A stretch of DNA of 39,283 nt from Escherichia phage Carena: sequence record OR769031.1, one strand, 5' to 3'. The position numbers and the translations under genes are program-made. Numbering within the stretch: position 1 is the stretch's first letter; every line of letters starts with the position of its first letter. The notes beneath the pieces were generated by a model. The model searched no databases and was not told where the DNA came from. It saw only the letters and a program-made list of their open reading frames with translations. Shown one piece after another: positions 568 to 37,188 of the stretch.

Positions 568-1011
568 ATGCTCAAGAATTTAAAGAGCTACGCCATCGCT
601 GTGGCCTTTGCCTTGGGGATGACCCTTGCGTACAACCACGGCTATGACAAGGCTAACACTAAATGGGAACAGGAGGTGCACAATGAGTACGTTAAGAAAG
701 TTGAGGCGACTGCGGATAAACAGGCTGCTCTCAATGAAGTCTCACGACAATACCAAGAAGACCTTGCGGCGCTGGAAGGCAGCACTGATAGGGTCATTAA
801 TGATTTGCGTAACGATGGTAAGCGGCTGCGTGTCAAACTATCAGCCACCTCACGAGAACTCCAAGCTAACGGTGGATGCCTCGTTGATGGTCGAGCCGAA
901 CTTGACGAAGAGTTTAGTAAGCGTCTTATCGGAGTAACTCAAAGAGGGGATGCGTGGATTAAAGCGCTCCAAAATACAATAACTGAAATGCAATCTAAGA
1001 AGGAGAAATAA
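568..1011 (+). CDS. 18.5: Rz-like inner-membrane spanin (i-spanin), 147 aa
   Basis: SD GGGGAGGG 5 nt before ATG at 568 (the 553 ATG lacks an SD); N-terminal TM helix then long charged coiled-coil; similar to recalled T7 gp18.5. Confidence 0.85.
   Translation: MLKNLKSYAIAVAFALGMTLAYNHGYDKANTKWEQEVHNEYVKKVEATADKQAALNEVSRQYQEDLAALEGSTDRVINDLRNDGKRLRVKLSATSRELQANGGCLVDGRAELDEEFSKRLIGVTQRGDAWIKALQNTITEMQSKKEK
683..937 (+). CDS. 18.7: Rz1-like outer-membrane lipoprotein spanin (o-spanin), embedded in +1 frame of Rz, 84 aa
   Basis: AGGAGG 6 nt upstream of ATG at 683; basic n-region, hydrophobic core, lipobox VSGC, proline-rich mature part; begins MSTLR like T7 gp18.7; entirely inside the Rz gene. 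Confidence 0.8.
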   Translation: MSTLRKLRRLRINRLLSMKSHDNTKKTLRRWKAALIGSLMICVTMVSGCVSNYQPPHENSKLTVDASLMVEPNLTKSLVSVLSE

Positions 1012-1012
1012 T

Positions 1013-1240
1013 ATGGCTACTACAAACTCAAGAACCAGCACACTCTGGACCATCAATGGTCGCTCACCAGATAGCCGTGATGTGTATGACCGCAACAATA
1101 TTGGTCTTCGTGTTGGGCGTATCGACATCCCAGCTTCCGTTATGTTCCAACCTAGTGACATCGACGTGGCTGTATCTAAGACCGACACTATCAAGGCTCT
1201 TGAGAAGCGCATCGCTGACTTAGAGAAATCTGCCAAGTAA
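1013..1240 (+). CDS. Hypothetical protein, 75 aa, between spanin and terminase large subunit
   Basis: AGGAG 7 nt upstream of ATG; starts 2 nt after Rz stop; no TM or signal peptide; C-terminal amphipathic/coiled-coil segment (IKALEKRIADLEKSAK). No counterpart at this junction in T7 as I recall it. Confidence 0.6.
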   Translation: MATTNSRTSTLWTINGRSPDSRDVYDRNNIGLRVGRIDIPASVMFQPSDIDVAVSKTDTIKALEKRIADLEKSAK

Positions 1241-1255
1241 CAATAGGAGGCCACA

Positions 1256-3013
1256 ATGTCTACTCAAGCAAACAAGAATGCGCTCATCGTGGCGCAACTT
1301 AAGGGTGACTTCGTGGCCTTCCTGTTCGTCTTATGGAAGGCTCTGAACTTACCTAAACCAACCAAGTGTCAGATTGATATGGCACGTACACTCGCTAACG
1401 GCGACCACAAGAAGTTTATCCTTCAGGCGTTCCGTGGTATCGGCAAGTCCTTTATCACCTGTGCGTTCGTCGTGTGGGTCTTATGGCGTGACCCTCAACT
1501 TAAGGTGCTCATTGTGTCTGCCTCTAAGGAACGTGCGGACGCTAACTCCATCTTCATCAAGAACATCATCGACCTCTTACCGTTCCTCTCTGAGTTGAAA
1601 CCTCGACCGGGACAGCGAGACTCCGTGATTAGCTTCGATGTGGGATTGGCTAAACCAGACCACTCTCCCTCTGTTAAGTCTGTAGGTATCACTGGTCAGT
1701 TGACTGGTAGCCGTGCTGACATCATCATCGCAGATGACGTTGAGGTTCCTGGTAATAGCTCTACGAGTTCTGCCCGTGAGAAGCTCTGGACGTTGGTAAC
1801 TGAGTTTGCTGCACTACTTAAGCCGCTGCCTACCTCTCGTGTTATCTACCTTGGCACACCTCAAACCGAGATGACGCTCTACAAGGAACTTGAGGATAAC
1901 AAAGGGTACAGCACAGTAATCTGGCCAGCACAGTATCCTCGCAATGATGCTGAGGCTCTCTACTATGGGGACCGCTTGGCTCCGATGCTTAAGGCTGAAT
2001 ACGATGAAGGCTATGAGTTACTTCGTGGTCAACCTACTGACCCTGTTCGATTCGACATGGATGACCTCCGTGAACGTGAACTCGAATACGGTAAAGCTGG
2101 CTACACGCTTCAGTTCATGCTTAACCCAAACCTTAGTGATGCCGAGAAGTACCCGCTACGACTCCGTGACGCTATCGTGTGCGCTGTGGACCCTGAACGT
2201 GCCCCATTGTCTTACCAGTGGTTGCCGAACCGTCAGAACCGCAATGAGGAACTCCCTAACGTTGGTCTGAAGGGTGATGACATCCATAGCTTCCATACGT
2301 GCTCTTCTAGAACCGCTGAGTACCAGTCTAAGATTCTCGTCATTGACCCTAGTGGTCGTGGTAAGGATGAGACCGGGTATGCAGTCCTCTACTCACTGAA
2401 CGGTTACATCTACCTGATGGAAGTAGGAGGGTTCCGTGGTGGCTACGATGATGCTACCCTAGAGAAGCTCGCTAAGAAGGCCAAGCAGTGGAAGGTACAG
2501 ACAGTCGTCCATGAGTCCAACTTCGGTGACGGTATGTTCGGTAAGATTTTCTCTCCGATTCTCCTGAAGCACCATAAGTGTGCCTTAGAGGAAATCCGTG
2601 CTAAGGGCATGAAGGAGATGCGAATCTGCGATACTATCGAGCCATTGATGGGTGCACACAAGCTGGTCATTCGTGATGAGGTTATCCGTGAGGACTATCA
2701 GACTGCTCGTGACCTTGATGGGAAACATGATGTCCGCTACAGTGCGTTCTATCAGATGACCCGTATGACCCGTGAGCGAGGCGCTGTGGCACACGATGAC
2801 CGCATTGATGCTATCGCATTGGGTATCGAGTTCCTTCGTGAAGGGATGCTTGTGGATAGCCGTGTAGGTGAAGAAGAGATGACCCTTGAGTTCCTTGAAC
2901 ATCACATGGAGAAACAGACCATTGGTGGTGATGCTATTCATAGCTACGAGGCTGGTGGCGTGGACATCTACTACGAGGATGATGGAGACTCTAGCTGCTT
3001 CATTGAGTGGTAA
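1256..3013 (+). CDS. 19: Terminase large subunit / DNA maturation protein B (gp19), 585 aa
   Basis: SD AGGAGG; near-identical N-terminus to recalled T7 gp19 ([30 protein letters not shown]); ATPase and nuclease regions conserved. Confidence 0.97.
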
Positions 3014-3100: not shown

Positions 3101-3123
3101 TAATACGACTCACTATTGGGAAG
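3101..3123 (+). promoter_or_regulatory. Phage RNAP promoter (phiOR-like)
   Basis: TAATACGACTCACTATTGGGAAG; 22/23 identical to T7 class III consensus; same position as T7 phiOR upstream of gene 19.5. Confidence 0.8.
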
Positions 3124-3137
3124 GGCACCCTAAGACA

Positions 3138-3157
3138 ACTTAAAGACACTTAAAGAC
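3138..3157 (+). repeat. Tandem decamer ACTTAAAGAC x2
   Basis: Direct tandem repeat read in the sequence; resembles the short AAAG-containing repeats near T7 genome ends. Confidence 0.5.
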
Positions 3158-3281
3158 TGCATATGCAAAGTGCATACTTAGTGACTAACTCTTAGAGACC
3201 CTTACAGTGAGGGATGATGGTAATAGTAATTACATCCCTAACTATCAGTGTAACCATCAAGTATAACAAGGAGGACGCTCT

Positions 3282-3437
3282 ATGCGCTTACTATCCGTGC
3301 TAAAGACACTGGCAACGCATCGAGTGACTTACAAATTTCTCGTTGTACTTGCTGCTTCCATTGGTCTCGCATCTAGTGCTGAACACATCGGTGAACTGGA
3401 GACTCTGCTTTGTTCTCTACTCACTTGTGTTCCTTAG
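3282..3437 (+). CDS. 19.5: gp19.5-like small protein, 51 aa
   Basis: SD AAGGAGG 7 nt upstream; not in the ORF track (<60 aa); conserved HRVTY.FLVVL motif as in T7 gp19.5; last gene before the genome end. Confidence 0.7.
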   Translation: MRLLSVLKTLATHRVTYKFLVVLAASIGLASSAEHIGELETLLCSLLTCVP

Positions 3438-3465
3438 ACTGCTCATCGGCGCTTAGTGCGCTCTT

Positions 3466-3503
3466 AGTGATTATGGTCGATATACATCTTCCCCATAATC
3501 ACT
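3466..3503. repeat. Perfect 11-bp inverted repeat AGTGATTATGG / CCATAATCACT with 16-nt spacer
   Basis: Read directly; lies in the noncoding terminal region between gene 19.5 and the early promoters. Confidence 0.7.
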
Positions 3504-3521
3504 GAGAGAGAGAGAGAGAGA
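3504..3521. repeat. (GA)9 dinucleotide tract
   Basis: gagagagagagagagaga read directly, immediately after the inverted repeat. Confidence 0.9.
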
Positions 3522-3552
3522 CGCTAACAATGGTCATCTTCTCTTTATGTCT

Positions 3553-3572
3553 ACTATAAGAGACTATAAGAC
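3553..3572 (+). repeat. Tandem decamer ACTATAAGAG / ACTATAAGAC
   Basis: Direct repeat, followed by ACTTAAAGAGAGG; same motif family as 3138-3157. Confidence 0.5.
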
Positions 3573-3611
3573 CACTTAAAGAGAGGCTTTAAGATTATTT
3601 GAGATTGAGTG

Positions 3612-3640
3612 TTGACATTGATAATGGCTTATGAGACTAT
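3612..3640 (+). promoter_or_regulatory. Host sigma70 early promoter (A1-like)
   Basis: TTGACA, 17-nt spacer, GACTAT; first of four evenly spaced TTGAC(A/T) elements upstream of gene 0.3. Confidence 0.55.
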
Positions 3641-3746
3641 AGCAACCGTTGAGAGACACAACGCTATCAACTACCAGACAAGACCGCGAGTTATCTGGTA
3701 ATGCTGAAGGGTCTCAAGTAGTCATCAACCAGACGTAAGAAAGTGG

Positions 3747-3775
3747 TTGACTCAACGAAAGAAACAACGTAGTAT
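3747..3775 (+). promoter_or_regulatory. Host sigma70 early promoter
   Basis: TTGACT, 17-nt spacer, TAGTAT. Confidence 0.7.
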
Positions 3776-3836
3776 AGCAGTCGTCAACAACTGGTCGCCC
3801 TCTGAAACAACATGAGGTGTCACGGTGAGAAAGCAG

Positions 3837-3866
3837 TTGACAAGTAGCAACAACAAGATGTAAGAT
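3837..3866 (+). promoter_or_regulatory. Host sigma70 early promoter (A2-like)
   Basis: TTGACA, 18-nt spacer, TAAGAT; same hexamers as T7 A2. Confidence 0.65.
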
Positions 3867-3996
3867 GTACGACATGCAATAAGAGAGAACGGATAGGAAC
3901 TGCGAAACCTGCCGGATACTCGCCAAGGATGAGGCACTGCTTATTGGAGTATGCAGACACGATAAGCACCACGTTATCTTCTAGTCAAATTAAGTG

Positions 3997-4025
3997 TTGA
4001 CACGGTAACGAAAGCACGATAAGAT
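3997..4025 (+). promoter_or_regulatory. Host sigma70 early promoter (A3-like)
   Basis: TTGACA, 17-nt spacer, TAAGAT; downstream ...GTGAGTCACCACACTGAAAGGTGATGCGGTCTAACGAAACCTGACC matches recalled T7 A3 leader. Confidence 0.7.
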
Positions 4026-4120
4026 GTACCACGAAATGACGGAACAGTGAGTCACCACACTGAAAGGTGATGCGGTCTAACGAAACCTGACCAAAGACGC
4101 TCTTTAACAATCTGGATAAT

Positions 4121-4190
4121 AGCTCTTGAGTGTACCGTATAAGCGAATAACTCAAGGTCGCACTGAAAGCGTGGCCTTTATGATATTCAC
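4121..4190 (+). promoter_or_regulatory. RNase III processing site (R0.3-like)
   Basis: AGCTCTTGAGTG...AACTCAAGGTCGCACTGAAAGCGTGGCCTTTATGATATTCAC; near-identical to recalled T7 R0.3. Confidence 0.7.
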
Positions 4191-4218
4191 TTAACGAACT
4201 AACATGAGGTAACACCAA

Positions 4219-4677
4219 ATGATTTTCACTAAAGAGCCTGCTAACGTCTTCTATGTACTGGTAAGCGCATTCCGTTCCAACCTCGACGATGAGGTGAATA
4301 TGAGTCGCCACCGCCACATGGTAAGCACTTTACGTGCCGCACCGGGTCTTTATGGCTCCGTTGAGTCAACCGATTTGACCGGGTGCTATCGTGAGGCAAT
4401 CGCAAGCGCACCGACTGAGGAAAAAACGGTTCGTGTACGCTGCAAGGACAAGGCGCAGGCACTCAATGTTGCACGCTTAGCTTGCAATGAGTGGGAGCAA
4501 GATTGCGTACTGGTATACAAATCACAGACTCACACGGCTGGTCTGGTGTACGCTAAAGGAATCGACGGTTACAAGGCTGAACGTCTGCCGGGTAGCTTCC
4601 AAGAAGTGCCTAAAGGCGCACCGCTTCAAGGTTGCTTTACGATTGATGAGTTCGGTCGCCGCTGGCAAGTACAGTAA
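4219..4677 (+). CDS. 0.3: Gene 0.3 product, SAM hydrolase (SAMase) type rather than Ocr, 152 aa
   Basis: First early gene; 152 aa, not acidic, unlike the 117-aa acidic Ocr; sequence MIFTKEPA... matches my recollection of T3 gp0.3 (recollection confidence about 0.75). Confidence 0.85.
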   Translation: MIFTKEPANVFYVLVSAFRSNLDDEVNMSRHRHMVSTLRAAPGLYGSVESTDLTGCYREAIASAPTEEKTVRVRCKDKAQALNVARLACNEWEQDCVLVYKSQTHTAGLVYAKGIDGYKAERLPGSFQEVPKGAPLQGCFTIDEFGRRWQVQ

Positions 4678-4680
4678 GTG

Positions 4681-4726
4681 TTAAACTCAAGGTCGCTCCT
4701 AGCGAGTGGCCTTTATGATTATCACT
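4681..4726 (+). promoter_or_regulatory. RNase III processing site (R0.5-like)
   Basis: AAACTCAAGGTCGCTCCTAGCGAGTGGCCTTTATGATTATCAC. Confidence 0.7.
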
Positions 4727-4752
4727 TTGAAACAACGCACGGGATTAATATC

Positions 4753-4890
4753 ATGCTGAAATCTTATGTTATGCCTATCCATACACGCAACGGGGCGACA
4801 GTTTGCACACCTGATGGCTTCGCAATGAAACAACGAATCGAACGCCTTAAGCGTGAACTGCGCACAAATCGCAAGATCAACAATATCTAA
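4753..4890 (+). CDS. 0.6: gp0.6-like small protein, 45 aa
   Basis: Internal ATG of track ORF 4678..4890 placed after the RNase III hairpin; sequence M.K.YVMPIHT.NGATVCTPDGFAMKQRIERLKRELR resembles recalled T7 gp0.6A. Confidence 0.7.
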   Translation: MLKSYVMPIHTRNGATVCTPDGFAMKQRIERLKRELRTNRKINNI

Positions 4891-4999
4891 ATCTAATTAC
4901 ATTTGACACTGGATAATGCACGAAGTGAGCGCTGGCGACATCATGGGCGCTCTCTCTCTCTCCCTCTTAAAGTCAACTAACTAAATAGGACACAATCTA

Positions 5000-6097
5000 A
5001 TGAACTACACCGACATTCAGGCACGTCTGGCAATCATCAAGTCTCTCCCGATTAGTGAACTGGACAAGCGCCAGCCTCTTTTGGTTGCACTTGCTGCTGA
5101 CATCGTGAACGGTGAGACGTGTGATGGTAACGACACCGATGGCTCGAACGGCTTGGAGTATCAGGACTGGTGGCACACATTGGGCGCACTGATGCGTGAT
5201 GCAGGTTTCCGCATGTTGGGTAATGGTCACTTCAGTGCGGCCTACTCGCATGAACTGTTACCGGGTCGAGTCATCAAGGTTGGCTTTAAGAAAGAGGATT
5301 CAGGCGCTGCATACACTGCATTCTGTAGGATGCACCAAGGCCGAGCGGGTATCCCTAACGTCTATCACGTAGCACGTCATGCAGGTTGCTATACGGTCGT
5401 ACTGGACCGCTTAAAAAGCTGTGACCGCGATAATTATGACCATGAGGTATACGCTGACCTCGCACGTTACTTTGTGGAGTCGGATTGCCATGACGCAAGC
5501 GACTTTGCACCGGGTGACTACGAGTTCATTGAGACCTGCCAGCTTATCCGCAAGTTCTTCAAAGGGATTGCATCTTTCGACATGCACAGCGGGAACATTA
5601 TGTTCGATGACAACGATGTCCCGTACATCACTGACCCGGTTAGTTTCTCCCATGACCGTGAACGCGAGGACGGTTTCCCATTAGACCCTGATGCACTGAT
5701 TGCCGAGGTCGAGGCGATAGCTAACGAGCGCATCATTGAACGGTGCCGCAATCGTAAGGCTAAGTGTGACCCTAATGGCACTTACTGGATGAACAAGAAA
5801 GCTAACATGAAACGCCGTAAGCGCAACCGTAAGTTACGTGCCAAGGTAGCTGAACGTGACCGCTTACACTTCATGGCAATCCGTAGGGAACGCGGTGTGA
5901 TTGAGCGTAACGAACGCCGTGCTGAGATGCTCATGGGGTCTGCGTGGCATGACTTCTGGCTGCGTAATGGTAACGCAACGGTACGCAAGATTGACCAAGT
6001 GAATGGCCTCAAGTGGCAACTAGGGGACCGCCTAGCAATCCAAGCGGGTCTACCTCTGAACATCGACAAGGTACTTGACTCTCAACTGCAAGGCTGA
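5000..6097 (+). CDS. 0.7: Ser/Thr protein kinase / host transcription shutoff protein (gp0.7), 365 aa
   Basis: Conserved blocks GFKMLGNGHFSAAYSH, VIKVGFKKEDSGAAYTAFCRM, SFDMHSGNIMF, PYITDPVSFS as in T7 gp0.7. Confidence 0.9.
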   Translation: MNYTDIQARLAIIKSLPISELDKRQPLLVALAADIVNGETCDGNDTDGSNGLEYQDWWHTLGALMRDAGFRMLGNGHFSAAYSHELLPGRVIKVGFKKEDSGAAYTAFCRMHQGRAGIPNVYHVARHAGCYTVVLDRLKSCDRDNYDHEVYADLARYFVESDCHDASDFAPGDYEFIETCQLIRKFFKGIASFDMHSGNIMFDDNDVPYITDPVSFSHDREREDGFPLDPDALIAEVEAIANERIIERCRNRKAKCDPNGTYWMNKKANMKRRKRNRKLRAKVAERDRLHFMAIRRERGVIERNERRAEMLMGSAWHDFWLRNGNATVRKIDQVNGLKWQLGDRLAIQAGLPLNIDKVLDSQLQG

Positions 6098-6103
6098 TAA
6101 GGT

Positions 6104-6148
6104 GTATCTTCAAGGTCGGCACTGACTGCTGGCCTTTATAGATAAACT
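6104..6148 (+). promoter_or_regulatory. RNase III processing site (R1-like)
   Basis: TCTTCAAGGTCGGCACTGACTGCTGGCCTTTATAGATAA. Confidence 0.65.
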
Positions 6149-6170
6149 TTCTTAACAACGTGAGGCAACA

Positions 6171-8822
6171 ATGACTAACGTAATCAACGCACCAAAGAAC
6201 GACTTCTCTGACATCGCTAACGCAATCATGCCGTACAACATTCTGGCTGACCACTACGGTGCACACCTTGCAGCTACGCAGTTACAGCTTGAGCACGAAG
6301 CGCACACTGAGGGTGAGAAGCGTTTTCTTAAGGCAATGGAACGTCAAATCAAAGCGGGTGAGTTCGGCGATAACGCAGTGGCTAAACCTCTCCTGTCATC
6401 CCTCGCACCAAAGTTTATCGAGGCGTGGAACACTTGGTTCACTGAAGTGGAAGCGAAGCGTGGCAAGCGTCCAGTGGCCTACAATCTGGTACAGAAGGTT
6501 GCACCTGAAGCTGCGGCATTCATCACACTGAAGGTCACACTGGCTTGCTTGACCAAAGAGGAATACACGAACCTTCAATCGGTCGCCACTAAGATTGGTC
6601 GTAGCATTGAAGATGAACTGCGTTTTGGTCGCATCCGTGACGAAGAAGCGAAGCACTTTAAGAACCATGTACAGGAGGCACTGAACAAGCGCGTTGGTAT
6701 CGTCTACAAGAAAGCATTCATGCAAGCCGTAGAGGGCAAGATGCTTGATGCTGGTCAACTGCAAACCAAGTGGACTACGTGGACACCTGAAGAATCAATC
6801 CACGTTGGAGTTCGCATGTTGGAACTGCTCATTGGGTCTACTGGTCTCGTTGAGTTACACAGACCGTTTGCTGGTAACGTTGAGAAGGATGGCGAGTACA
6901 TCCAGTTAACCGAGCAATACGTTGACCTGTTATCTAAACGTGCTGGCGCTCTGGCTGCGATTGCACCAATGTATCAACCTTGTGTAGTCCCTCCGAAGCC
7001 TTGGACTTCTCCGGTTGGCGGTGGCTATTGGGCGGCTGGTCGCAAGCCTCTCTCTCTGGTTCGTACTGGTTCCAAGAAGGGACTTGAGCGTTACAACGAT
7101 GTGTATATGCCTGAAGTCTACAAGGCGGTGAACATCGCACAGAATACTCCTTGGAAGATTAACAAGAAGGTTCTGGCAGTGGTCAACGAGATTGTGAACT
7201 GGAAGCATTGCCCGGTTGAAGATGTACCCGCTCTGGAACGTGGTGAACTCCCGGTCAAACCTGAAGACATCGACACCAACGAAGCGGCACTCAAAGCGTG
7301 GAAGAAAGCGGCCTCCGCAATCTACCGCAAAGAGAAGGCTCGCGTGTCTCGTCGCATGAGCATGGAGTTCATGTTAGGTCAGGCCAATAAGTTCGCACAG
7401 TTTAAAGCTATCTGGTTCCCAATGAACATGGACTGGCGCGGTCGTGTGTATGCGGTCCCTATGTTTAACCCGCAAGGCAACGACATGACTAAAGGTCTGT
7501 TAACGCTCGCTAAAGGTAAACCGATTGGTGTCGATGGGTACTACTGGCTGAAGATTCACGGTGCTAACACTGCTGGTGTGGACAAGGTGGACTTCGCAGA
7601 ACGCATCAAGTTCATTGATGACAACCACGAGAACATCATGAGCGTAGCGGCTGACCCAATTGCTAACACTTGGTGGGCTGAACAAGACTCCCCGTTCTGC
7701 TTCCTCGCGTTCTGCTTTGAGTATGCGGGAGTCCAGCACCACGGGATGAACTACAACTGCTCTCTGCCGCTGGCGTTCGATGGCTCTTGCTCTGGTATTC
7801 AGCACTTCTCCGCGATGCTCCGCGATGAGGTTGGCGGTCGTGCGGTTAACCTGCTGCCGAGCAAGGAAGTACAGGACATCTACCGCATCGTTGCTGAACG
7901 TGTGAACGAAATCCTGAACCAAGATGTTATCAACGGGACCGACAACGAAGTAGAGACCGTGACCAACAAGGACACAGGGGAAATCACCGAGAAGCTCAAG
8001 CTGGGTACTAAAGAACTAGCTGGTCAGTGGCTGGCCTACGGTGTGACTCGCAAGGTCACTAAACGTTCAGTCATGACGTTGGCTTACGGTTCCAAAGAGT
8101 ACGGATTCCGTGACCAAGTTCTTGAGGACACCATTCAGCCAGCTATCGACGATGGTAAAGGCTTGATGTTCACTCAACCGAACCAAGCGGCTGGCTATAT
8201 GGCTAAACTGATTTGGGACGCTGTAACGGTGACTGTGGTCGCTGCGGTTGAAGCAATGAACTGGCTGAAGTCTGCTGCTAAACTGCTGGCTGCTGAAGTC
8301 AAGGACAAGAAGACCAAAGAGGTTCTGCGCAAACGCTGTGCGGTACATTGGGTAACTCCTGATGGCTTCCCGGTCTGGCAGGAATATAAGAAGCCAGTAC
8401 AGACCCGCTTGAACCTGATGTTCTTAGGTCAGATTCGTTTGCAGCCTACCGTGAACACCAACAAGGATAGCGGCATTGATGCACGTAAGCAGGAGTCAGG
8501 TATCGCACCTAACTTTGTTCACTCAATGGATGGAAGCCACCTGCGAATGACTGTAGTGCGCTCCTATGAGGTCTACGGTGTGGAATCCTTCGCACTGATT
8601 CATGACTCATTTGGTACTATCCCGGCTGATGCTGGCAACCTGTTCAAAGCTGTACGTGAAACGATGGTGAACACCTATGAAGAAAACGATGTACTTGCAG
8701 ACTTCTATGAGCAATTTGCTGACCAGTTGCACGAATCACAGCTTGACAAGATGCCTGAGATGCCAGCTAAGGGTTCTCTGGACCTGCAAGAAATCCTTAA
8801 GTCAGACTTTGCGTTTGCCTAA
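6171..8822 (+). CDS. 1: Single-subunit DNA-dependent RNA polymerase (gp1), 883 aa
   Basis: Same length as T7 RNAP; catalytic and specificity-loop regions conserved (RLNLMFLGQ.RLQPT with Asn at the T7 N748-equivalent codon 8412-8414; HDSFGT). Confidence 0.98.
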   Translation: MTNVINAPKNDFSDIANAIMPYNILADHYGAHLAATQLQLEHEAHTEGEKRFLKAMERQIKAGEFGDNAVAKPLLSSLAPKFIEAWNTWFTEVEAKRGKRPVAYNLVQKVAPEAAAFITLKVTLACLTKEEYTNLQSVATKIGRSIEDELRFGRIRDEEAKHFKNHVQEALNKRVGIVYKKAFMQAVEGKMLDAGQLQTKWTTWTPEESIHVGVRMLELLIGSTGLVELHRPFAGNVEKDGEYIQLTEQYVDLLSKRAGALAAIAPMYQPCVVPPKPWTSPVGGGYWAAGRKPLSLVRTGSKKGLERYNDVYMPEVYKAVNIAQNTPWKINKKVLAVVNEIVNWKHCPVEDVPALERGELPVKPEDIDTNEAALKAWKKAASAIYRKEKARVSRRMSMEFMLGQANKFAQFKAIWFPMNMDWRGRVYAVPMFNPQGNDMTKGLLTLAKGKPIGVDGYYWLKIHGANTAGVDKVDFAERIKFIDDNHENIMSVAADPIANTWWAEQDSPFCFLAFCFEYAGVQHHGMNYNCSLPLAFDGSCSGIQHFSAMLRDEVGGRAVNLLPSKEVQDIYRIVAERVNEILNQDVINGTDNEVETVTNKDTGEITEKLKLGTKELAGQWLAYGVTRKVTKRSVMTLAYGSKEYGFRDQVLEDTIQPAIDDGKGLMFTQPNQAAGYMAKLIWDAVTVTVVAAVEAMNWLKSAAKLLAAEVKDKKTKEVLRKRCAVHWVTPDGFPVWQEYKKPVQTRLNLMFLGQIRLQPTVNTNKDSGIDARKQESGIAPNFVHSMDGSHLRMTVVRSYEVYGVESFALIHDSFGTIPADAGNLFKAVRETMVNTYEENDVLADFYEQFADQLHESQLDKMPEMPAKGSLDLQEILKSDFAFA

Positions 8823-8829
8823 CGGAATC

Positions 8830-8852
8830 TAATACGACTCACTATTGGGAGA
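8830..8852 (+). promoter_or_regulatory. Phage RNAP promoter (phi1.1A-like)
   Basis: TAATACGACTCACTATTGGGAGA. Confidence 0.85.
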
Positions 8853-8911: not shown

Positions 8912-9481
8912 ATGTTTACTTTCATTGCAACCACTACCGCTATCATCTCCACCACACTGGCTATCGTCTTCCTCAAGACTGGTAAGCAAGTCAATGACCA
9001 ACTCAATGCAGCCTATAAGGAACGTAAAGTTCTCAAAGAGAATCTGGCTGAAGGTCATAGTGAACTGGCATCCATGCGCAATTACATTGAGAGATACAAG
9101 CGAGAGACTGAGAGCGACATGAAGTTTGAAAGTGAGCGCACCAAGGCAATCATCACAGACCATGTGAACCGCAACAAGGAACTGAGAGAGCACATTAAGG
9201 AGTTAGAGAAGTTCCGCGATGGCATCCTGTTTAGTGACATCACGTCTATCAAGTTTACTGCTCACATCCCGGATGCTGGATGGAAGCGCACTGAGTTCAA
9301 GCTAGGCATAGGGTCTTGTGGCAAAGAGGTTACATGTTTGCACTGGAAAGAACAGTCGGACCGTTACCTGCTGACACAGACATGCACTGATGGTGAGCGC
9401 AAAGAGTTCACCTATTATAAGAAAGACGTAGCGGGTCGCATTGAGATTGCACGTAAGGTTGCAGACAATACGACTCACTAA
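8912..9481 (+). CDS. Hypothetical membrane-anchored protein in the gene 1.05 slot, 189 aa
   Basis: SD and phi1.1A upstream; N-terminal TM helix (FTFIATTTAIISTTLAIVFL), long charged coiled-coil, Cys-containing C-terminal domain; not present in T7. Confidence 0.8.
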   Translation: MFTFIATTTAIISTTLAIVFLKTGKQVNDQLNAAYKERKVLKENLAEGHSELASMRNYIERYKRETESDMKFESERTKAIITDHVNRNKELREHIKELEKFRDGILFSDITSIKFTAHIPDAGWKRTEFKLGIGSCGKEVTCLHWKEQSDRYLLTQTCTDGERKEFTYYKKDVAGRIEIARKVADNTTH

Positions 9482-9488
9482 TGGGAAA
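9466..9488 (+). promoter_or_regulatory. Phage RNAP promoter (phi1.1B-like)
   Basis: CAATACGACTCACTAATGGGAAA; overlaps the last four codons and stop of the upstream ORF. Confidence 0.8.
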
Positions 9489-9720: not shown

Positions 9721-9992
9721 TGGGTCGCTTATACAGTGGTAACTTAATGGCATACAAAGACGCTATCGAACGACTCAAAGAAGACCACGATGTGAGTGTG
9801 GTCGTTGAGACTTTCCGCTATGAGAACTATGCGAGGATGCGATGGGTATCCGGTGAGACTCTTCGAGTGGTCTTACGGAATGGCTTAGTGTTAACCTCTA
9901 AGTGTTTCGAACAGGACGATGAAGACGTTCGCTGCAATGCACAGACTGAATGGCTTCGTAAGGTACACAGTGACCTGAAGCACTGGAAGTAA
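9720..9992 (+). CDS. 1.2: gp1.2-like (host dGTPase inhibitor family), 90 aa
   Basis: Starts MGRLYSGNL and ends DLKHWK like T7 gp1.2 (MGRLYSGNL...LKDWK); TAATG overlap with gene 1.1 stop. Confidence 0.85.
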   Translation: MGRLYSGNLMAYKDAIERLKEDHDVSVVVETFRYENYARMRWVSGETLRVVLRNGLVLTSKCFEQDDEDVRCNAQTEWLRKVHSDLKHWK

Positions 9993-10012
9993 TACGACTC
10001 ACTATTGCGAGA
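9990..10012 (+). promoter_or_regulatory. Phage RNAP promoter (phi1.3-like)
   Basis: TAATACGACTCACTATTGCGAGA (C at +2); its first TAA is the gene 1.2 stop codon. Confidence 0.8.
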
Positions 10013-11190: not shown

Positions 11191-11225
11191 GGTCAGTCCT
11201 TAGCGGGGCTGGCCTTTTGCGTTTC
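11191..11225 (+). terminator. Candidate early terminator (TE-like)
   Basis: GGUCAG/CUGGCC 6-bp stem (one G-U) followed by UUUUGCGUUUC; same location and U-rich tail (..GGCCTTT.TGCGTTT.TATA) as recalled T7 TE. Confidence 0.4.
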
Positions 11226-11247
11226 TATACGACTCACTATGGAGGAA
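11225..11247 (+). promoter_or_regulatory. Degenerate phage RNAP promoter (phi1.5-like)
   Basis: CTATACGACTCACTATGGAGGAA; -13..-3 core intact, -17/-16 and -1 deviate; GGAGGA doubles as SD. Confidence 0.45.
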
Positions 11248-11254
11248 CAACCTC

Positions 11255-11335
11255 ATGCTATTTCTAATTGTCGCTGTAATTGTTGCCACATTTGCTTTCG
11301 TTGTCATTGACGACAATTGCTGGCCTGATTGCTAA
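11255..11335 (+). CDS. Small hydrophobic peptide (gp1.5-like), 26 aa
   Basis: SD GGAGGA 8 nt upstream; hydrophobic core plus acidic/Cys tail, pattern like T7 gp1.5; not in track. Confidence 0.45.
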   Translation: MLFLIVAVIVATFAFVVIDDNCWPDC

Positions 11336-11355
11336 TACGACTCACACATGGAGGA
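11333..11355 (+). promoter_or_regulatory. Degenerate phage RNAP promoter (phi1.6-like)
   Basis: TAATACGACTCACACATGGAGGA; -17..-5 perfect, -4..-1 altered (ACAT instead of TATT). Confidence 0.5.
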
Positions 11356-12088: not shown

Positions 12089-12276
12089 GCAACTTAAACA
12101 AAGGGTCACTTGTAAACGGTGACAAGAAGTTCTTCGCAACGGTCGAAGGCCAAGGCCAATCGTTCGAAGTCCCTGTGTTCGCTGCGTCTCTTGAAGAGGC
12201 CAACGAGTTAGCTGAGTGGCAATATGTCCCGGCTGGCTTCGCAGTGACACGCATCCGTCCAGACCGAAAGGTTTAA
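12085..12276 (+). CDS. 2: Host RNA polymerase inhibitor Gp2, 63 aa
   Basis: ATGA overlap with 1.8 stop; MSNLNKGSL...FEVP...[14 protein letters not shown] matches T7 Gp2. Confidence 0.9.
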
Positions 12277-12296
12277 TAGGACTCACTATTGGGAGA
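12274..12296 (+). promoter_or_regulatory. Phage RNAP promoter (phi2.5-like)
   Basis: TAATAGGACTCACTATTGGGAGA; first TAA is the gene 2 stop codon. Confidence 0.8.
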
Positions 12297-13945: not shown

Positions 13946-14038
13946 ATGATGATTATCCACGAGATGGGTCTATACGATTTGGCTTATCGCTTGGCATTCC
14001 TGCTGGCAATGGTCTACATTCTGACCCGCAAGGATTAA
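13946..14038 (+). CDS. Small hydrophobic peptide, 30 aa
   Basis: ATG 5 nt after gene 3.5 stop; single predicted TM segment; stop codon is the TAA of the following promoter; not in track; no strong SD. Confidence 0.35.
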   Translation: MMIIHEMGLYDLAYRLAFLLAMVYILTRKD

Positions 14039-14058
14039 TAGAACTCACTATGGGAGGA
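14036..14058 (+). promoter_or_regulatory. Phage RNAP promoter (phi3.8-like)
   Basis: TAATAGAACTCACTATGGGAGGA. Confidence 0.65.
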
Positions 14059-16056: not shown

Positions 16057-16058
<2 letters not shown>

Positions 16059-16079
16059 ATACGACTCACTAATGGGACA
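16057..16079 (+). promoter_or_regulatory. Phage RNAP promoter (phi4.3-like)
   Basis: AAATACGACTCACTAATGGGACA. Confidence 0.75.
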
Positions 16080-16887: not shown

Positions 16888-16910
16888 CTATTCAACTCAC
16901 TAATGGGAGA
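16888..16910 (+). promoter_or_regulatory. Degenerate phage RNAP promoter (phi4.7-like)
   Basis: CTATTCAACTCACTAATGGGAGA; A instead of G at -11, deviant -17..-12. Confidence 0.5.
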
Positions 16911-21299: not shown

Positions 21300-21322
21300 C
21301 AATACGACTCACTATGGGAGAG
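21300..21322 (+). promoter_or_regulatory. Phage RNAP promoter (phi6.5-like)
   Basis: CAATACGACTCACTATGGGAGAG. Confidence 0.7.
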
Positions 21323-22301: not shown

Positions 22302-23909
22302 ATGGCAAGCTCACAGAAACGTGAAGGCTTTGCGGAGAATGGTGCCAAGGCTGTGTATGACGCATTGAAGAACGACCGGAACTCCTATGAGACCCGTGCG
22401 GAAAACTGTGCGAAGTACACAATCCCCTCGTTGTTCCCTAAAGACTCCGACAACGCATCAACTGACTACACCACTCCGTGGCAAGCAGTAGGTGCTCGCG
22501 GTCTGAACAACTTGGCCTCTAAGCTCATGCTAGCTCTGTTCCCTATGCAGACTTGGATGAAGCTGACCATCTCTGAGTTCGAAGCGAAACAATTGGTTGC
22601 ACAACCTGCTGAACTGGCGAAGGTCGAAGAGGGTCTCTCAATGGTCGAGCGTATCTTGATGAACTACATCGAGTCAAACTCCTACCGTGTGACACTCTTT
22701 GAGACCCTGAAGCAGTTAATCGTGGCTGGTAACGCATTGCTCTACATCCCGGAACCTGAAGGTACTTACAATCCCATGAAGTTATACCGACTGTCTTCTT
22801 ATGTTGTCCAACGAGACGCATTCGGCACGGTATTACAGATTGTGACCTTGGATAAGACTGCTTATGCAGCGCTACCAGAAGACGTAAGGAACTCTCTGGA
22901 CTCCGGTACGGAACACAAAGGCGATGAAATGATTGACGTGTATACTCACATTTATCTCGATGAGGAATCAGGCGAATACCTGAAGTACGAAGAGATTGAT
23001 GGAGTCGAAGTTGATGGTACAGATGCTTCTTATCCGGTGGACGCTTGTCCTTATATCCCGGTTCGCATGGTACGCATTGATGGGGAATCATACGGTCGTT
23101 CATACTGCGAGGAATACTTGGGTGACTTACGTTCCCTTGAGAACCTTCAGGAAGCTATCGTCAAGATGTCCATGATTAGCGCAAAGGTTATCGGCTTGGT
23201 AAACCCTGCTGGTATCACACAGGTTCGCCGCTTGACCAAAGCGCAGACTGGTGACTTCGTGTCTGGTCGTCCAGAAGACATCTCGTTCCTGCAACTCGAA
23301 AAGGCTGCTGACTTCTCCGTGGCTCGTGCTGTGAGTGAACAGATTGAAGGCCGACTGTCCTATGCCTTTATGCTGAACTCCGCTGTGCAACGTACTGGTG
23401 AGCGTGTGACTGCCGAAGAGATTCGCTATGTTGCATCTGAACTCGAAGATACCCTTGGTGGTGTCTATTCGATTCTCTCACAGGAACTTCAGTTGCCAAT
23501 GGTTCGTGTCCTGCTGAAGCAACTTCAAGCGACCAATCAGATTCCTGAGTTACCGAAAGAGGCCGTTGAGCCTACTATCAGTACCGGGATGGAAGCATTG
23601 GGTCGTGGTCAAGACCTCGATAAGCTGGAACGCTGTATTGCTGCGTGGTCTGCTCTTGCTCCTATGCAGAATGACCCGGACATCAACATTGCGACCATTA
23701 AGTTGCGCATTGCGAACGCTATCGGCATCGACACTTCCGGTATCCTCAAGACACCTGAAGAGAAACAACAGGAAATGGCTGAGTCCGCTCAAGGTACTGC
23801 ACTGGAGAACGCTGCTGCGTCTGCTGGTGCTGGTGCTGGTGCACTGGCTACTGCAAGTCCTGAGAACATGCAAGCTGCTGCTGAACAGGCTGGTATGGTT
23901 CCCAATTAA
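22302..23909 (+). CDS. 8: Portal (head-to-tail connector) protein gp8, 535 aa
   Basis: Size and position as T7 gp8 (536 aa); SD AAGGAGG. Confidence 0.97.
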   Translation: MASSQKREGFAENGAKAVYDALKNDRNSYETRAENCAKYTIPSLFPKDSDNASTDYTTPWQAVGARGLNNLASKLMLALFPMQTWMKLTISEFEAKQLVAQPAELAKVEEGLSMVERILMNYIESNSYRVTLFETLKQLIVAGNALLYIPEPEGTYNPMKLYRLSSYVVQRDAFGTVLQIVTLDKTAYAALPEDVRNSLDSGTEHKGDEMIDVYTHIYLDEESGEYLKYEEIDGVEVDGTDASYPVDACPYIPVRMVRIDGESYGRSYCEEYLGDLRSLENLQEAIVKMSMISAKVIGLVNPAGITQVRRLTKAQTGDFVSGRPEDISFLQLEKAADFSVARAVSEQIEGRLSYAFMLNSAVQRTGERVTAEEIRYVASELEDTLGGVYSILSQELQLPMVRVLLKQLQATNQIPELPKEAVEPTISTGMEALGRGQDLDKLERCIAAWSALAPMQNDPDINIATIKLRIANAIGIDTSGILKTPEEKQQEMAESAQGTALENAAASAGAGAGALATASPENMQAAAEQAGMVPN

Positions 23910-23929
23910 TACGACTCACTAATGGGAGA
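23907..23929 (+). promoter_or_regulatory. Phage RNAP promoter (phi9-like)
   Basis: TAATACGACTCACTAATGGGAGA; first TAA is the gene 8 stop. Confidence 0.85.
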
Positions 23930-24899: not shown

Positions 24900-24922
24900 T
24901 AATACGACTCACTATTGGGAGA
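24900..24922 (+). promoter_or_regulatory. Phage RNAP promoter (phi10-like, capsid gene promoter)
   Basis: TAATACGACTCACTATTGGGAGA followed by a GGGAGA...TCTCCC 5' stem-loop and a 105-nt leader to gene 10. Confidence 0.9.
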
Positions 24923-26267: not shown

Positions 26268-26290
26268 CTAATAGACTCACTAATGGGAGG
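26268..26290 (+). promoter_or_regulatory. Degenerate phage RNAP promoter (phi11-like)
   Basis: CTAATAGACTCACTAATGGGAGG; GACTCACTA core intact, upstream part shifted by 1 nt. Confidence 0.5.
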
Positions 26291-29323: not shown

Positions 29324-29346
29324 CAATACGACTCACTATTGGGAAG
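29324..29346 (+). promoter_or_regulatory. Phage RNAP promoter (phi13-like)
   Basis: CAATACGACTCACTATTGGGAAG; flanked by CCCCC / GGGGGG runs. Confidence 0.8.
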
Positions 29347-37165: not shown

Positions 37166-37188
37166 CAATACGACTCACTAATGGGAAG
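37166..37188 (+). promoter_or_regulatory. Phage RNAP promoter (phi17-like)
   Basis: CAATACGACTCACTAATGGGAAG followed by a GGGAAG...CTTCCC stem-loop. Confidence 0.85.

Follow-up and report, generated by a model that had tools for sequence, protein, structure and literature searches.

We conclude with high confidence that Escherichia phage Carena is a Berlinvirus that carries a T3-type SAM lyase in gene 0.3 and phage promoters of the kind normal for its genus, and that the 0.3 cassette was swapped in from Teetrevirus, the T3 group. The window analyzed here, the whole 39,283 nt stretch of record OR769031.1, is the genome of a BA14-like Berlinvirus in circularly permuted form. The whole-genome comparison suggested in the preliminary description gave nucleotide identities of 91.5% over 95% of the genome for nasanit (PV245933) and 90.2% over 94% for BA14, both classified as Berlinvirus in their records, against 72.8% for phiYeO3-12 and 71.7% for T7, each over ~72% of the genome. 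A 24.9-kb query from the window was 92.6% identical to nasanit over 94%. With the genus level for nucleotide similarity at approximately 70%, these values place Carena as a BA14-like T7-group phage in the genus Berlinvirus; nasanit, at <95% identity, is classed as a different species by the usual criterion. By the same comparison Carena falls outside Teetrevirus, as shown by its distance from phiYeO3-12, the lack of the promoter core CCCTCACTA and an RNA polymerase with N748; only positions 4097-4727 are T3-group-like.

The 152-aa product of gene 0.3 had been described from the sequence as a non-acidic protein of the T3 SAMase type rather than Ocr, and our searches bear this out. It matched the Pfam family PF23780 (S-AdoMet_lyase) at E=2.5e-42 and 144.4 bits over model positions 1-132 of 133, the curated threshold being 28 bits, and PHROG 2226 at 1.8e-54. 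The T3 SAMase chain (PDB 7OCK/8BB1) is identical at 150 of 152 residues, and the similarity extends over residues 1-152 (E=8e-101). The sole differences, C23D and S62A, lie outside the residues mutated in earlier studies (PMC7877911; bioRxiv 10.1101/2023.02.27.530186). The gp0.3 proteins of phiYeO3-12 and nasanit are each identical at 152/152 residues. The active-site residues E67, E68, Q94 and D95 (T3 numbering) are all conserved at the same positions as in T3, and so are the MetK-interface residues I2 and T4 at the N terminus and Q103 and T104 in the loop; the roles of both sets were defined previously (PMC7877911; bioRxiv 10.1101/2023.02.27.530186). As in Carena, gp0.3 of phiYeO3-12 and T3 has 152 aa, is encoded by the first early gene behind A promoters and an R0.3 hairpin, contains the internal start codon M28 and retains these residues.

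T7 Ocr, the gene 0.3 product of Teseptimavirus, occupies the same genomic slot, has the same early timing and likewise targets type I restriction-modification and BREX. It is, however, a DNA mimic of 117 aa with a pI of 4.05 (D+E = 34, K+R = 6), whereas the Carena protein is near-neutral (pI 7.6, D+E = 18, K+R = 19). BLASTP of Ocr against the gene 0.3 product gave no match at E<=100, and a tblastn search for a hidden ocr across the whole window returned only noise (E>5). As judged from these comparisons, the gene 0.3 product is of the T3 SAMase type and unrelated to Ocr, and it lacks the features that define an Ocr-type DNA mimic, namely high acidity, a length of ~117 aa and homology to T7 gp0.3.

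The enzymatic activity, MetK binding and anti-restriction role of the Carena protein are predicted from its 99-100% identity to characterised proteins. Gene 0.3 would be the first gene read by host RNA polymerase once the DNA has entered. By homology to T3 gp0.3, its product would cleave SAM to 5′-methylthioadenosine and homoserine lactone and, by binding MetK, the SAM synthetase of the host, would block SAM resynthesis as well. The SAM pool required by type I restriction enzymes and BREX would then collapse, allowing unmodified phage DNA to survive. The T3 SAMase type enzyme is a lyase and not a hydrolase (PMC7877911), so that the earlier label 'SAM-hydrolase-type' has to be dropped; in annotation 'lyase' is correct, while both 'SAM hydrolase' and 'SAM-dependent methyltransferase' are wrong. 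Several public records propagate the latter misnomer. The preliminary description had offered SAM depletion or methyltransferase inhibition as the anti-restriction strategy. Depletion is still the expected route, but the second activity of T3 SAMase is the inhibition of MetK, not of methyltransferases (PMC8406200; bioRxiv 10.1101/2023.02.27.530186), and the binding depends on an E. coli-type MetK (bioRxiv 10.1101/2023.02.27.530186). For host-range prediction and phage therapy, gene 0.3 would predict resistance to type I restriction-modification and BREX in hosts with an E. coli-type MetK.

Direct inhibition of EcoKI was proposed in earlier work, and in the historical T3 mutant 3356 anti-restriction survived the loss of SAM cleavage (both as summarised in bioRxiv 10.1101/2023.02.27.530186). 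These reports would fit a main role independent of SAM, in which the gene 0.3 product directly binds and inhibits type I restriction enzymes in an Ocr-like manner. However, the catalytically dead E68Q/Q94A T3 protein still binds MetK, and its residual activity is gone if MetK cannot be bound; because this activity requires MetK binding, the old 3356 phenotype is explained via SAM synthesis (bioRxiv 10.1101/2023.02.27.530186). The Carena protein is, moreover, non-acidic and without similarity to Ocr. We regard direct inhibition as highly improbable and retain SAM depletion as the predicted mode of action.

The phage promoters had been read as T7-type and not T3-type, and both the promoters and the polymerase agree with this. 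GACTCACTA occurs at 13 sites, all on the + strand (0.46 expected; maximum 3 in 100 shuffles), whereas the T3-type CCCTCACTA has 0 sites in the whole window. A matrix scan found 16 phage promoters, that is, the 13 GACTCACTA sites and three with AACTCACTA or GACTCACAC cores (Table 1). All 13 GACTCACTA sites are embedded in 23-mers of the form TAATACGACTCACTA[T/A]TGGGAGA, which is the consensus of the annotated BA14 promoters. Positions -12 to -8 read CGACT (G-11, A-10) as in T7, compared with ACCCT in T3. The Carena promoters are T7-like from -17 to -3 but do not match the full T7 23-bp consensus TAATACGACTCACTATAGGGAGA, having T, not A, at -1. To judge by their sequence they are T7-like, more precisely Berlinvirus-type, and cross-recognition of promoters such as TAATACGACTCACTATTGGGAGA by T7 RNAP is plausible. 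The gene 1 RNAP is 98.8% identical in amino acids to that of BA14, 76.5% to T7 and 75.3% to T3. The AT-rich recognition loop has the T7-type residues R96 and K98, and N748, which is D in T3 and phiYeO3-12, lies in the specificity loop together with R756 and Q758; an RNAP with these three residues would read the 16 promoters of the form TAATACGACTCACTA(T/A)TGGGAGA. In contrast, phiYeO3-12 and T3, as members of Teetrevirus, combine CCCTCACTA promoters with D749.

Table 1. Features of the Carena window, with coordinates on the + strand and the basis of each assignment.
Feature	Coordinates	Strand	Basis or remark
Phage promoter TAATACGACTCACTATTGGGAAG (phiOR position)	3101..3123	+	motif + matrix scan; identical to BA14 phiOR
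Candidate host sigma-70-type early promoter, TTGACT-17-TAGTAT, A-series	3747..3775	+	consensus scan; predicted function
Candidate host sigma-70-type early promoter, TTGACA-18-TAAGAT	3837..3866	+	10/12 consensus matches; predicted function
Candidate host sigma-70-type early promoter, TTGACA-17-TAAGAT	3997..4025	+	last before gene 0.3; aligns with A3-type promoter of T3 and phiYeO3-12
Putative T3-group (Teetrevirus-like) recombinant tract: leader, R0.3 hairpin, gene 0.3, 5′ half of R0.45/R0.5 hairpin	4097..4727	+	631 bp
R0.3-type RNase III processing hairpin upstream of gene 0.3	4136..4196	+	-19.8 kcal/mol, z=-4.1; putative cleavage
Gene 0.3, predicted S-adenosylmethionine lyase (T3 SAMase type), 152 aa	4219..4677	+	ATG-to-stop ORF
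Synonymous micro-patch GTA AGC GCA, BA14-type, within T3-type allele	4263..4269	+	7 nt; probable short secondary conversion tract
Possible in-frame internal start 0.3B, from M28	4300..4677	+	preceded by GAGGTGA; T3 annotates internal initiation at homologous codon
R0.45/R0.5-type RNase III hairpin	4676..4727	+	-18.6 kcal/mol, z=-3.1; contains right-hand crossover 4682-4699
T7 gp0.6A-like small ORF, 45 aa	4753..4890	+	86% nt identity to T7 1648-1769; phrog_8393 at 2e-27; protein comparison
Gene 0.7, Ser/Thr protein kinase	5000..6097	+	phrog_2828 at 4e-180
Gene 1, single-subunit RNA polymerase, 883 aa	6171..8822	+	T7-type specificity residues R96, K98, R746, N748, R756, Q758
Phage promoter (phi1.05 position)	8830..8852	+	motif + matrix scan
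Phage promoter (phi1.1 position)	9466..9488	+	motif + matrix scan
Phage promoter (phi1.3 position)	9990..10012	+	motif + matrix scan
Phage promoter (phi1.5 position)	11225..11247	+	motif + matrix scan
Weaker phage promoter TAATACGACTCACACATGGAGGA (phi1.6 position)	11333..11355	+	matrix scan, 21.4 bits
Phage promoter (phi2.5 position)	12274..12296	+	motif + matrix scan
Weaker phage promoter, GAACTCACTA core (phi3.8 position)	14036..14058	+	matrix scan, 22.3 bits
Phage promoter (phi4.3 position)	16057..16079	+	motif + matrix scan
Phage promoter, CAACTCACTA core (phi4.7 position)	16888..16910	+	matrix scan, 27.1 bits; identical to BA14 phi4.7
Phage promoter (phi6.5 position)	21300..21322	+	motif + matrix scan
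Phage promoter (phi9 position)	23907..23929	+	motif + matrix scan
Phage promoter (phi10 position)	24900..24922	+	motif + matrix scan
Phage promoter, between phi10-type (24900) and phi13-type (29324)	26268..26290	+	motif + matrix scan
Phage promoter (phi13 position)	29324..29346	+	motif + matrix scan
Phage promoter (phi17 position)	37166..37188	+	motif + matrix scan

A SAMase gene together with T7-type promoters had been taken to suggest modular exchange. This pairing is, however, standard in Berlinvirus. A SAMase is encoded at 0.3 in every Berlinvirus examined (BA14, 285P, Kvp1, FE44, P483, CarlSpitteler and ErnstBeyeler), and BA14, 285P, Kvp1, FE44, P483 and CarlSpitteler have the same gene order as Carena. 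Ten of the 20 SAMase loci in IMG/VR carry GACTCACTA promoters and the RLNLMFLG polymerase motif; the Berlinvirus loci there carry GACTCACTA promoters, and the promoters that accompany SAMase relatives have at least four different cores. The combination was already noted in Kvp1 in 2008 and in BASEL phages in 2021 (PMC2579914, PMC8594841). On these genome comparisons it is the known norm of the genus and not a hybrid state, and Carena, whose T3-type SAM lyase looks functional, is a Berlinvirus rather than a T3/T7 hybrid. What stands of the earlier suggestion is exchange at a finer scale, as the 0.3 cassette itself appears to be a recent T3-group import (98% vs ~72% identity).

Of the 631 bp at 4097-4727, Carena and phiYeO3-12 differ at 12 (98.1% identity); in the flanks, identity is 60-80%. 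The 200-bp windows outside this tract have a mean identity to phiYeO3-12 of 72% (sd 6, maximum 88.5), and >=93% is reached nowhere else in the genome. The 0.3 allele of BA14 is 81% identical to that of Carena in nucleotides and 136/152 in amino acids, and the other Berlinvirus alleles (including 285P, Kvp1, FE44, P483 and CarlSpitteler) are 78-83% identical in nucleotides. Ten metagenomic contigs encoding the identical protein were read, and each of them is T3-type, with CCCTCACTA and without GACTCACTA; nine carry an 884-aa RNAP with the D749 motif, and the tenth ends inside gene 1. Besides Carena, only nasanit has a T3-type 0.3 allele in a Berlinvirus backbone. We infer the direction of exchange from this distribution of alleles, whereas the identities, motifs, residues and mosaic boundaries are direct observations.

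Near-identity to the T3 group could in principle reflect purifying selection on a slow-evolving, vertically inherited gene, with no exchange at all. The gene 0.3 protein is indeed constrained (dN 0.006-0.08 in all comparisons), and the presence of SAMase throughout the Berlinvirus genomes examined would agree with inheritance. Synonymous divergence tells otherwise: in gene 0.3, dS is 0.08 relative to phiYeO3-12 and 1.08 relative to BA14, whereas gene 1 shows the opposite order, with 1.67 and 0.40. This contrast contradicts vertical conservation as the cause of the high identity. In addition, the 122-bp non-coding leader (4097-4218) has zero mismatches to phiYeO3-12, the other Berlinvirus alleles are far more distant, and identity drops abruptly at 4096/4097 and ~4727. 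Vertical inheritance is thus extremely improbable, and recent import of the cassette is the reading supported by the sequence comparison.

The assembly must be imperfect somewhere because the window lacks ~500 bp, the terminal repeat and phiOL, which are present in BA14 and nasanit. This could point to a chimera, in which the assembly fused reads of a co-occurring T3-group phage with a Berlinvirus contig where RNase III and leader sequences are conserved. The right-hand junction falls within a 52-bp element found as a repeat in relatives, and metagenomes commonly contain T3-group phages encoding the identical protein. However, the same type of mosaic is present in nasanit, isolated independently in Thailand (drainage water, host E. 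coli), and the two sequences are identical at positions 3900-4216 of the window, a stretch that includes the left junction. The BA14-type micro-patch at 4263-4269 is found in 0/16 T3-type alleles checked, all of which read GT[GT]TC[ACT]GCT, but in 8/8 BA14-type Berlinvirus alleles, and a read chimera would not yield it. The tract also differs by ~2% from every T3-group sequence recovered. A chimera is therefore very unlikely, and we hold to a genuine recombinant.

Nasanit is the closest genome to Carena. Its T3-type allele matches at 452/459 nt with an identical protein, but it lacks the micro-patch, which distinguishes Carena from phiYeO3-12 and T3 as well. It keeps the terminal-repeat and phiOL region and a phiYeO3-12-like gene 0.45 between two RNase III site copies; in Carena gene 0.45, which lies downstream of 0.3 in phiYeO3-12 and T3, is absent. 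Derivation of the window from nasanit strictly by deletion was rejected, as base 4681 matches phiYeO3-12 but neither of the hairpin copies of nasanit, and the two backbones share only ~92% identity. The left-junction 31-mer GAAACCTGACCAAAGACGCTCTTTAACAATC had eight matches in IMG/VR, none of them a recombinant; their alignment with the window ends at the 0.3 start codon (4221), and most carry GACTCACTA promoters. Because these matches lack SAMase, GAAACCTGACCAAAGACGCTCTTTAACAATC marks a conserved leader and cannot serve to recognise the junction. A 48-mer across the right junction had no match in IMG/VR, where no second arrangement without 0.45 was recovered.

The cassette was probably replaced from hairpin to hairpin by a Teetrevirus allele through homologous recombination in the conserved leader and RNase III hairpin, after which gene 0.45 would have been lost and a short tract converted back to Berlinvirus sequence. 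We suggest tentatively, with a confidence just short of even, that the 0.3 slot of T7-group phages is a hot spot of inter-genus exchange, where whole anti-restriction cassettes are swapped, stacked or trimmed by way of homologous linkers formed by the conserved RNase III hairpins and the leader. The uptake of the Teetrevirus SAM-lyase cassette by Carena and nasanit fits this idea, as does the loss of gene 0.45 from Carena via a crossover inside the hairpin. So does Berlinvirus A7: in front of its own SAMase it has a T7 ocr (97% identical) with an R0.5-type hairpin behind it. If the hot spot is general, counter-defence genes of Studiervirinae would circulate in cassettes that are bounded by hairpins and uncoupled from the transcription module. 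The movement of counter-defence genes between genera is already accepted for the T7 group; the swap common to Carena and nasanit, with its parallel in the ocr and SAMase tandem of A7, would be a small example of it in lytic phages. With both the gene and the genus known, the recombination is a modest addition.

The surroundings of gene 0.3 are consistent with its earlier description as the first early gene. It lies downstream of the sigma-70-like promoters at 3747, 3837 and 3997, in a stretch whose homolog in the BA14 record has four annotated host-RNAP promoters, and of the hairpin at 4136-4196, which is 100% identical to the annotated R0.3 of phiYeO3-12 and aligns with that of T3, too; cleavage of these hairpins by RNase III is predicted. 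The hairpin at 4676-4727 is phiYeO3-12-like 5′ of the loop, whereas from the loop to its 3′ end it matches nasanit copy 2 and T7 R0.5. Where Carena has the T7-like 0.6A, BA14 has a T3-like 0.6 gene. The Berlinvirus backbone resumes at gene 0.7, and from ~4987 onward the sequence is 95-99% identical to BA14 and nasanit.

The product of gene 0.3, which the preliminary description regarded as a non-acidic SAMase of the T3 type and not as Ocr, indeed belongs to this type. It matched the S-adenosylmethionine lyase family PF23780 in Pfam (2.5e-42, 144 bits, cut-off 28) and aligned over its full length with the T3 SAMase chain (PDB 7OCK/8BB1), from which it differs by two substitutions, C23D and S62A. 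The gp0.3 proteins of Yersinia phage phiYeO3-12 and Escherichia phage nasanit are each identical to it at 152/152 residues. Its pI is 7.6, with 18 acidic and 19 basic residues, in contrast to T7 Ocr (pI 4.05, 34 acidic among 117 residues). BLASTP against Ocr gave no match at E≤100, and no ocr was found in the whole window by tblastn with the Ocr query, which returned noise only.

T3 SAMase, like its relatives, acts as a lyase, yielding MTA and homoserine lactone (PMC7877911), and the term hydrolase is to be corrected accordingly. SAM synthesis is also inhibited by the T3 protein, which binds the synthetase responsible, MetK (PMC8406200; bioRxiv 10.1101/2023.02.27.530186); on these sources, the proposed methyltransferase inhibition should read MetK inhibition. 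This binding largely accounts for the older notion that EcoKI is blocked directly, as by Ocr, and SAM is required for the defensive step of type I R-M and BREX (bioRxiv 10.1101/2023.02.27.530186). The gene 0.3 product keeps E67, E68, Q94 and D95 of the catalytic site as well as the MetK contacts I2, T4, Q103 and T104. As the T3 type both cleaves SAM and inhibits MetK and these key residues are retained, homology to T3 SAMase argues that SAM depletion was the right anti-restriction route to propose; SAM cleavage and MetK inhibition together would disable type I R-M and BREX. Public records widely label homologues of T3 SAMase 'SAM-dependent methyltransferase' (e.g. NC_003298 T3p01 and PV245933 CDS0015), and this label also appears in PHROG 2226. 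This label is a misnomer for a SAM-destroying enzyme, and the lyase name of PF23780 is correct.

The genome as a whole is that of a Berlinvirus. In megablast with a 24.9-kb query, the closest record was nasanit (92.6% identity over 94%), followed by CarlSpitteler, ErnstBeyeler, JSS1, BA14, 285P, P483, FE44 and Kvp1; all four records opened (nasanit, BA14, CarlSpitteler and ErnstBeyeler) are classified as Berlinvirus. Across the whole window, nasanit shares 91.5% identity (95% covered) and BA14 90.2% (94% covered), but phiYeO3-12 just 72.8% and T7 71.7%, with ~72% covered in each case. The window is circularly permuted, gene 19 for the terminase large subunit ending at 3013 ahead of the early region.

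The promoters are of the T7 type, as had been noted. The T7-type core GACTCACTA occurs at 13 sites, every one on the + strand (0.46 expected), versus none for the T3-type core CCCTCACTA in the window. Each of these sites is a 23-mer that reads TAATACGACTCACTA(T/A)TGGGAGA, and a position-weight scan added three weaker promoters, for a total of 16, and found none on the minus strand. No phage promoter was found in the stretch 3124-8829. The gene 1 RNA polymerase is 98.8% identical to that of BA14 and 75-77% to those of T7 and T3, and has N748 where the T3 and phiYeO3-12 enzymes carry D.

The combination of SAMase with T7-type promoters had been taken as a sign of modular exchange, but this argument does not hold. 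BA14 has a gene 0.3 of the same family (459 nt) and the same annotated promoter consensus, and all the remaining Berlinvirus records matched carry SAMase at the 0.3 locus (among them 285P, Kvp1, FE44, P483, BP12A, BSP161, S523, A7, PZJ0206, CarlSpitteler and ErnstBeyeler). Relatives were found at 20 loci in IMG/VR, 10 of which have GACTCACTA promoters with the T7-type RLNLMFLG motif, two CCCTCACTA promoters with the T3-type RLDMIFLG motif, and eight other cores (GGTAGCACTA, GGGCACACTA and one GGACACACTA). T3-like gp0.3, 0.6 and 0.7 alongside Berlin-like phage promoters were already noted in Kvp1 (PMC2579914), and the BASEL study found SAMase at the 0.3 locus in all tested Studiervirinae genera except Teseptimavirus (PMC8594841). 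Since the pairing is the Berlinvirus norm and is in the literature, it is not in itself a sign of a T3 x T7 hybrid. The IMG/VR contigs L040-L047, T7-group genomes of ~40-41 kb, encode distant SAMase relatives (37-40% aa identity), and the promoter-like core that recurs in them is GGTAGCACTA, GGGCACACTA or GGACACACTA; as these cores differ, the SAMase slot does not depend on polymerase specificity across several lineages.

Exchange itself did occur, at the 0.3 cassette. In a sliding comparison, 4097-4727 is 98.1% identical to phiYeO3-12 (12 mismatches/631 bp) between flanks of 60-80%. This is the sole place in 39 kb with ≥93% identity in 200-bp windows; those outside average 72% (sd 6, maximum 88.5). 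The BA14 allele of gene 0.3 is identical at merely 374/459 nt and 136/152 aa, and other Berlinvirus alleles are 78-83% identical. Synonymous divergences are incongruent: dS of gene 0.3 is 0.08 versus phiYeO3-12 and 1.08 versus BA14, the opposite order to gene 1 (1.67 and 0.40, respectively). Across the non-coding leader (122 bp, 4097-4218), phiYeO3-12 and the window do not differ at any position, and the identity is therefore not explicable by protein-level constraint. Except for nasanit, all records with ≥85% identity to gene 0.3 belong to the T3-like group, an assignment made mostly by organism name and confirmed as Teetrevirus for the T3 and phiYeO3-12 records. Among the metagenomic contigs with a gene for the identical protein, all ten that were read have CCCTCACTA promoters and none has GACTCACTA; in nine, the polymerase is 884 aa long and bears the T3-type motif, and the tenth ends inside gene 1. 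The parsimonious reading of these sequences is allelic replacement from Teetrevirus to Berlinvirus in a common ancestor of the window phage and nasanit.

Features of the window and counterparts in related phages
Feature	Position	Strand	Details
Gene 0.3, SAMase type	4219-4677	+	ATG-to-stop frame, 152 aa (ORF listing)
Hairpin, putative R0.3 RNase III site counterpart	4136-4196		-19.8 kcal/mol, z=-4.1; R0.3 site annotated in T3 and phiYeO3-12
Second hairpin, holding the right edge	4676-4727		-18.6 kcal/mol, z=-3.1
T7 gp0.6A-like ORF	4753-4890		45 aa; 86% nt identity to T7 gp0.6A; phrog_8393
Gene 1 RNA polymerase	6171-8822		T7-type specificity residues R746, N748, R756, Q758, plus R96, K98
Counterparts of window 3505-3567	BA14 39475-39816 and 195-422; nasanit 3879-4427
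Shigella phage A7 (VB_Ship_A7, NC_048180)	ocr 257-601; SAMase 670-1128		R0.5-type hairpin between

The left edge (4096/4097) lies within the leader, ~40 nt 5′ of the first hairpin. In the second hairpin, the 5′ arm of the stem resembles phiYeO3-12, and the loop and everything downstream match the second hairpin copy of nasanit and the T7 R0.5 site. Gene 0.45 follows gene 0.3 in nasanit and phiYeO3-12, and nasanit carries its phiYeO3-12-like copy between two copies of this RNase III-type hairpin (5536-5592 and 5857-5908), whereas in the window only one hairpin, a hybrid, is present and 0.45 is missing, which is consistent with loss by recombination between the hairpin copies. The next ORF is T7 gp0.6A-like where BA14 has a T3-like 0.6 gene, and thus segments of three kinds, Berlinvirus, Teetrevirus and Teseptimavirus-like, are patched together in the early region. 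The Berlinvirus backbone returns from ~4987 with the 0.7 kinase. The 0.6-0.7 intergenic region contains a (CT)n-rich run, GCTCTCTCTCTCTCCCTCTT (4944-4960), mirroring the (GA)9 run at 3503-3521.

We considered whether the T3-like tract is an assembly chimera. The window lacks ~500 bp found in BA14 and nasanit between gene 19.5 and the A promoters, and the assembly is therefore imperfect: 63 bp including the (GA)9 run (3505-3567) stand where these phages have about 550-570 bp, and the absent segment includes, in BA14, the terminal repeat, concatemer junction and phiOL promoter. This shortfall may reflect either a collapse during assembly or a true deletion, and T7-type packaging would be difficult to square with the latter. 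Three points argue against a chimera. First, nasanit, a separate public record from drainage water in Thailand (host E. coli), carries the same 0.3 allele and is identical to the window across the left junction (3900-4216). Second, the tract is ~2% different from every T3-group sequence recovered. Third, 4263-4269 inside the T3-type gene reads GTAAGCGCA, which differs from all T3-type alleles by five synonymous changes (Ser AGC, not TCN); this string is present in 8/8 BA14-type and 0/16 T3-type alleles checked, and hence absent from every T3-type source sequence checked. It looks like a short secondary gene-conversion tract within the imported gene.

The preliminary observation is thus confirmed and its interpretation partly supported, with gene type, promoter type and functional direction right. 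A known protein has the same sequence as the gene 0.3 product, the genome falls in a known genus, and the combination has been described before. To this the allele swap from hairpin to hairpin adds a minor but well-supported point. Together with this swap, the tandem genes of Shigella phage A7, also a Berlinvirus, suggest as a plausible generalisation that genera may repeatedly exchange cassettes bounded by hairpins and so remodel the 0.3 slot. In A7, an ocr 97% identical to that of T7 (100/103 aa) lies directly 5′ of the phage's own SAMase gene, placing both anti-restriction strategies in tandem.
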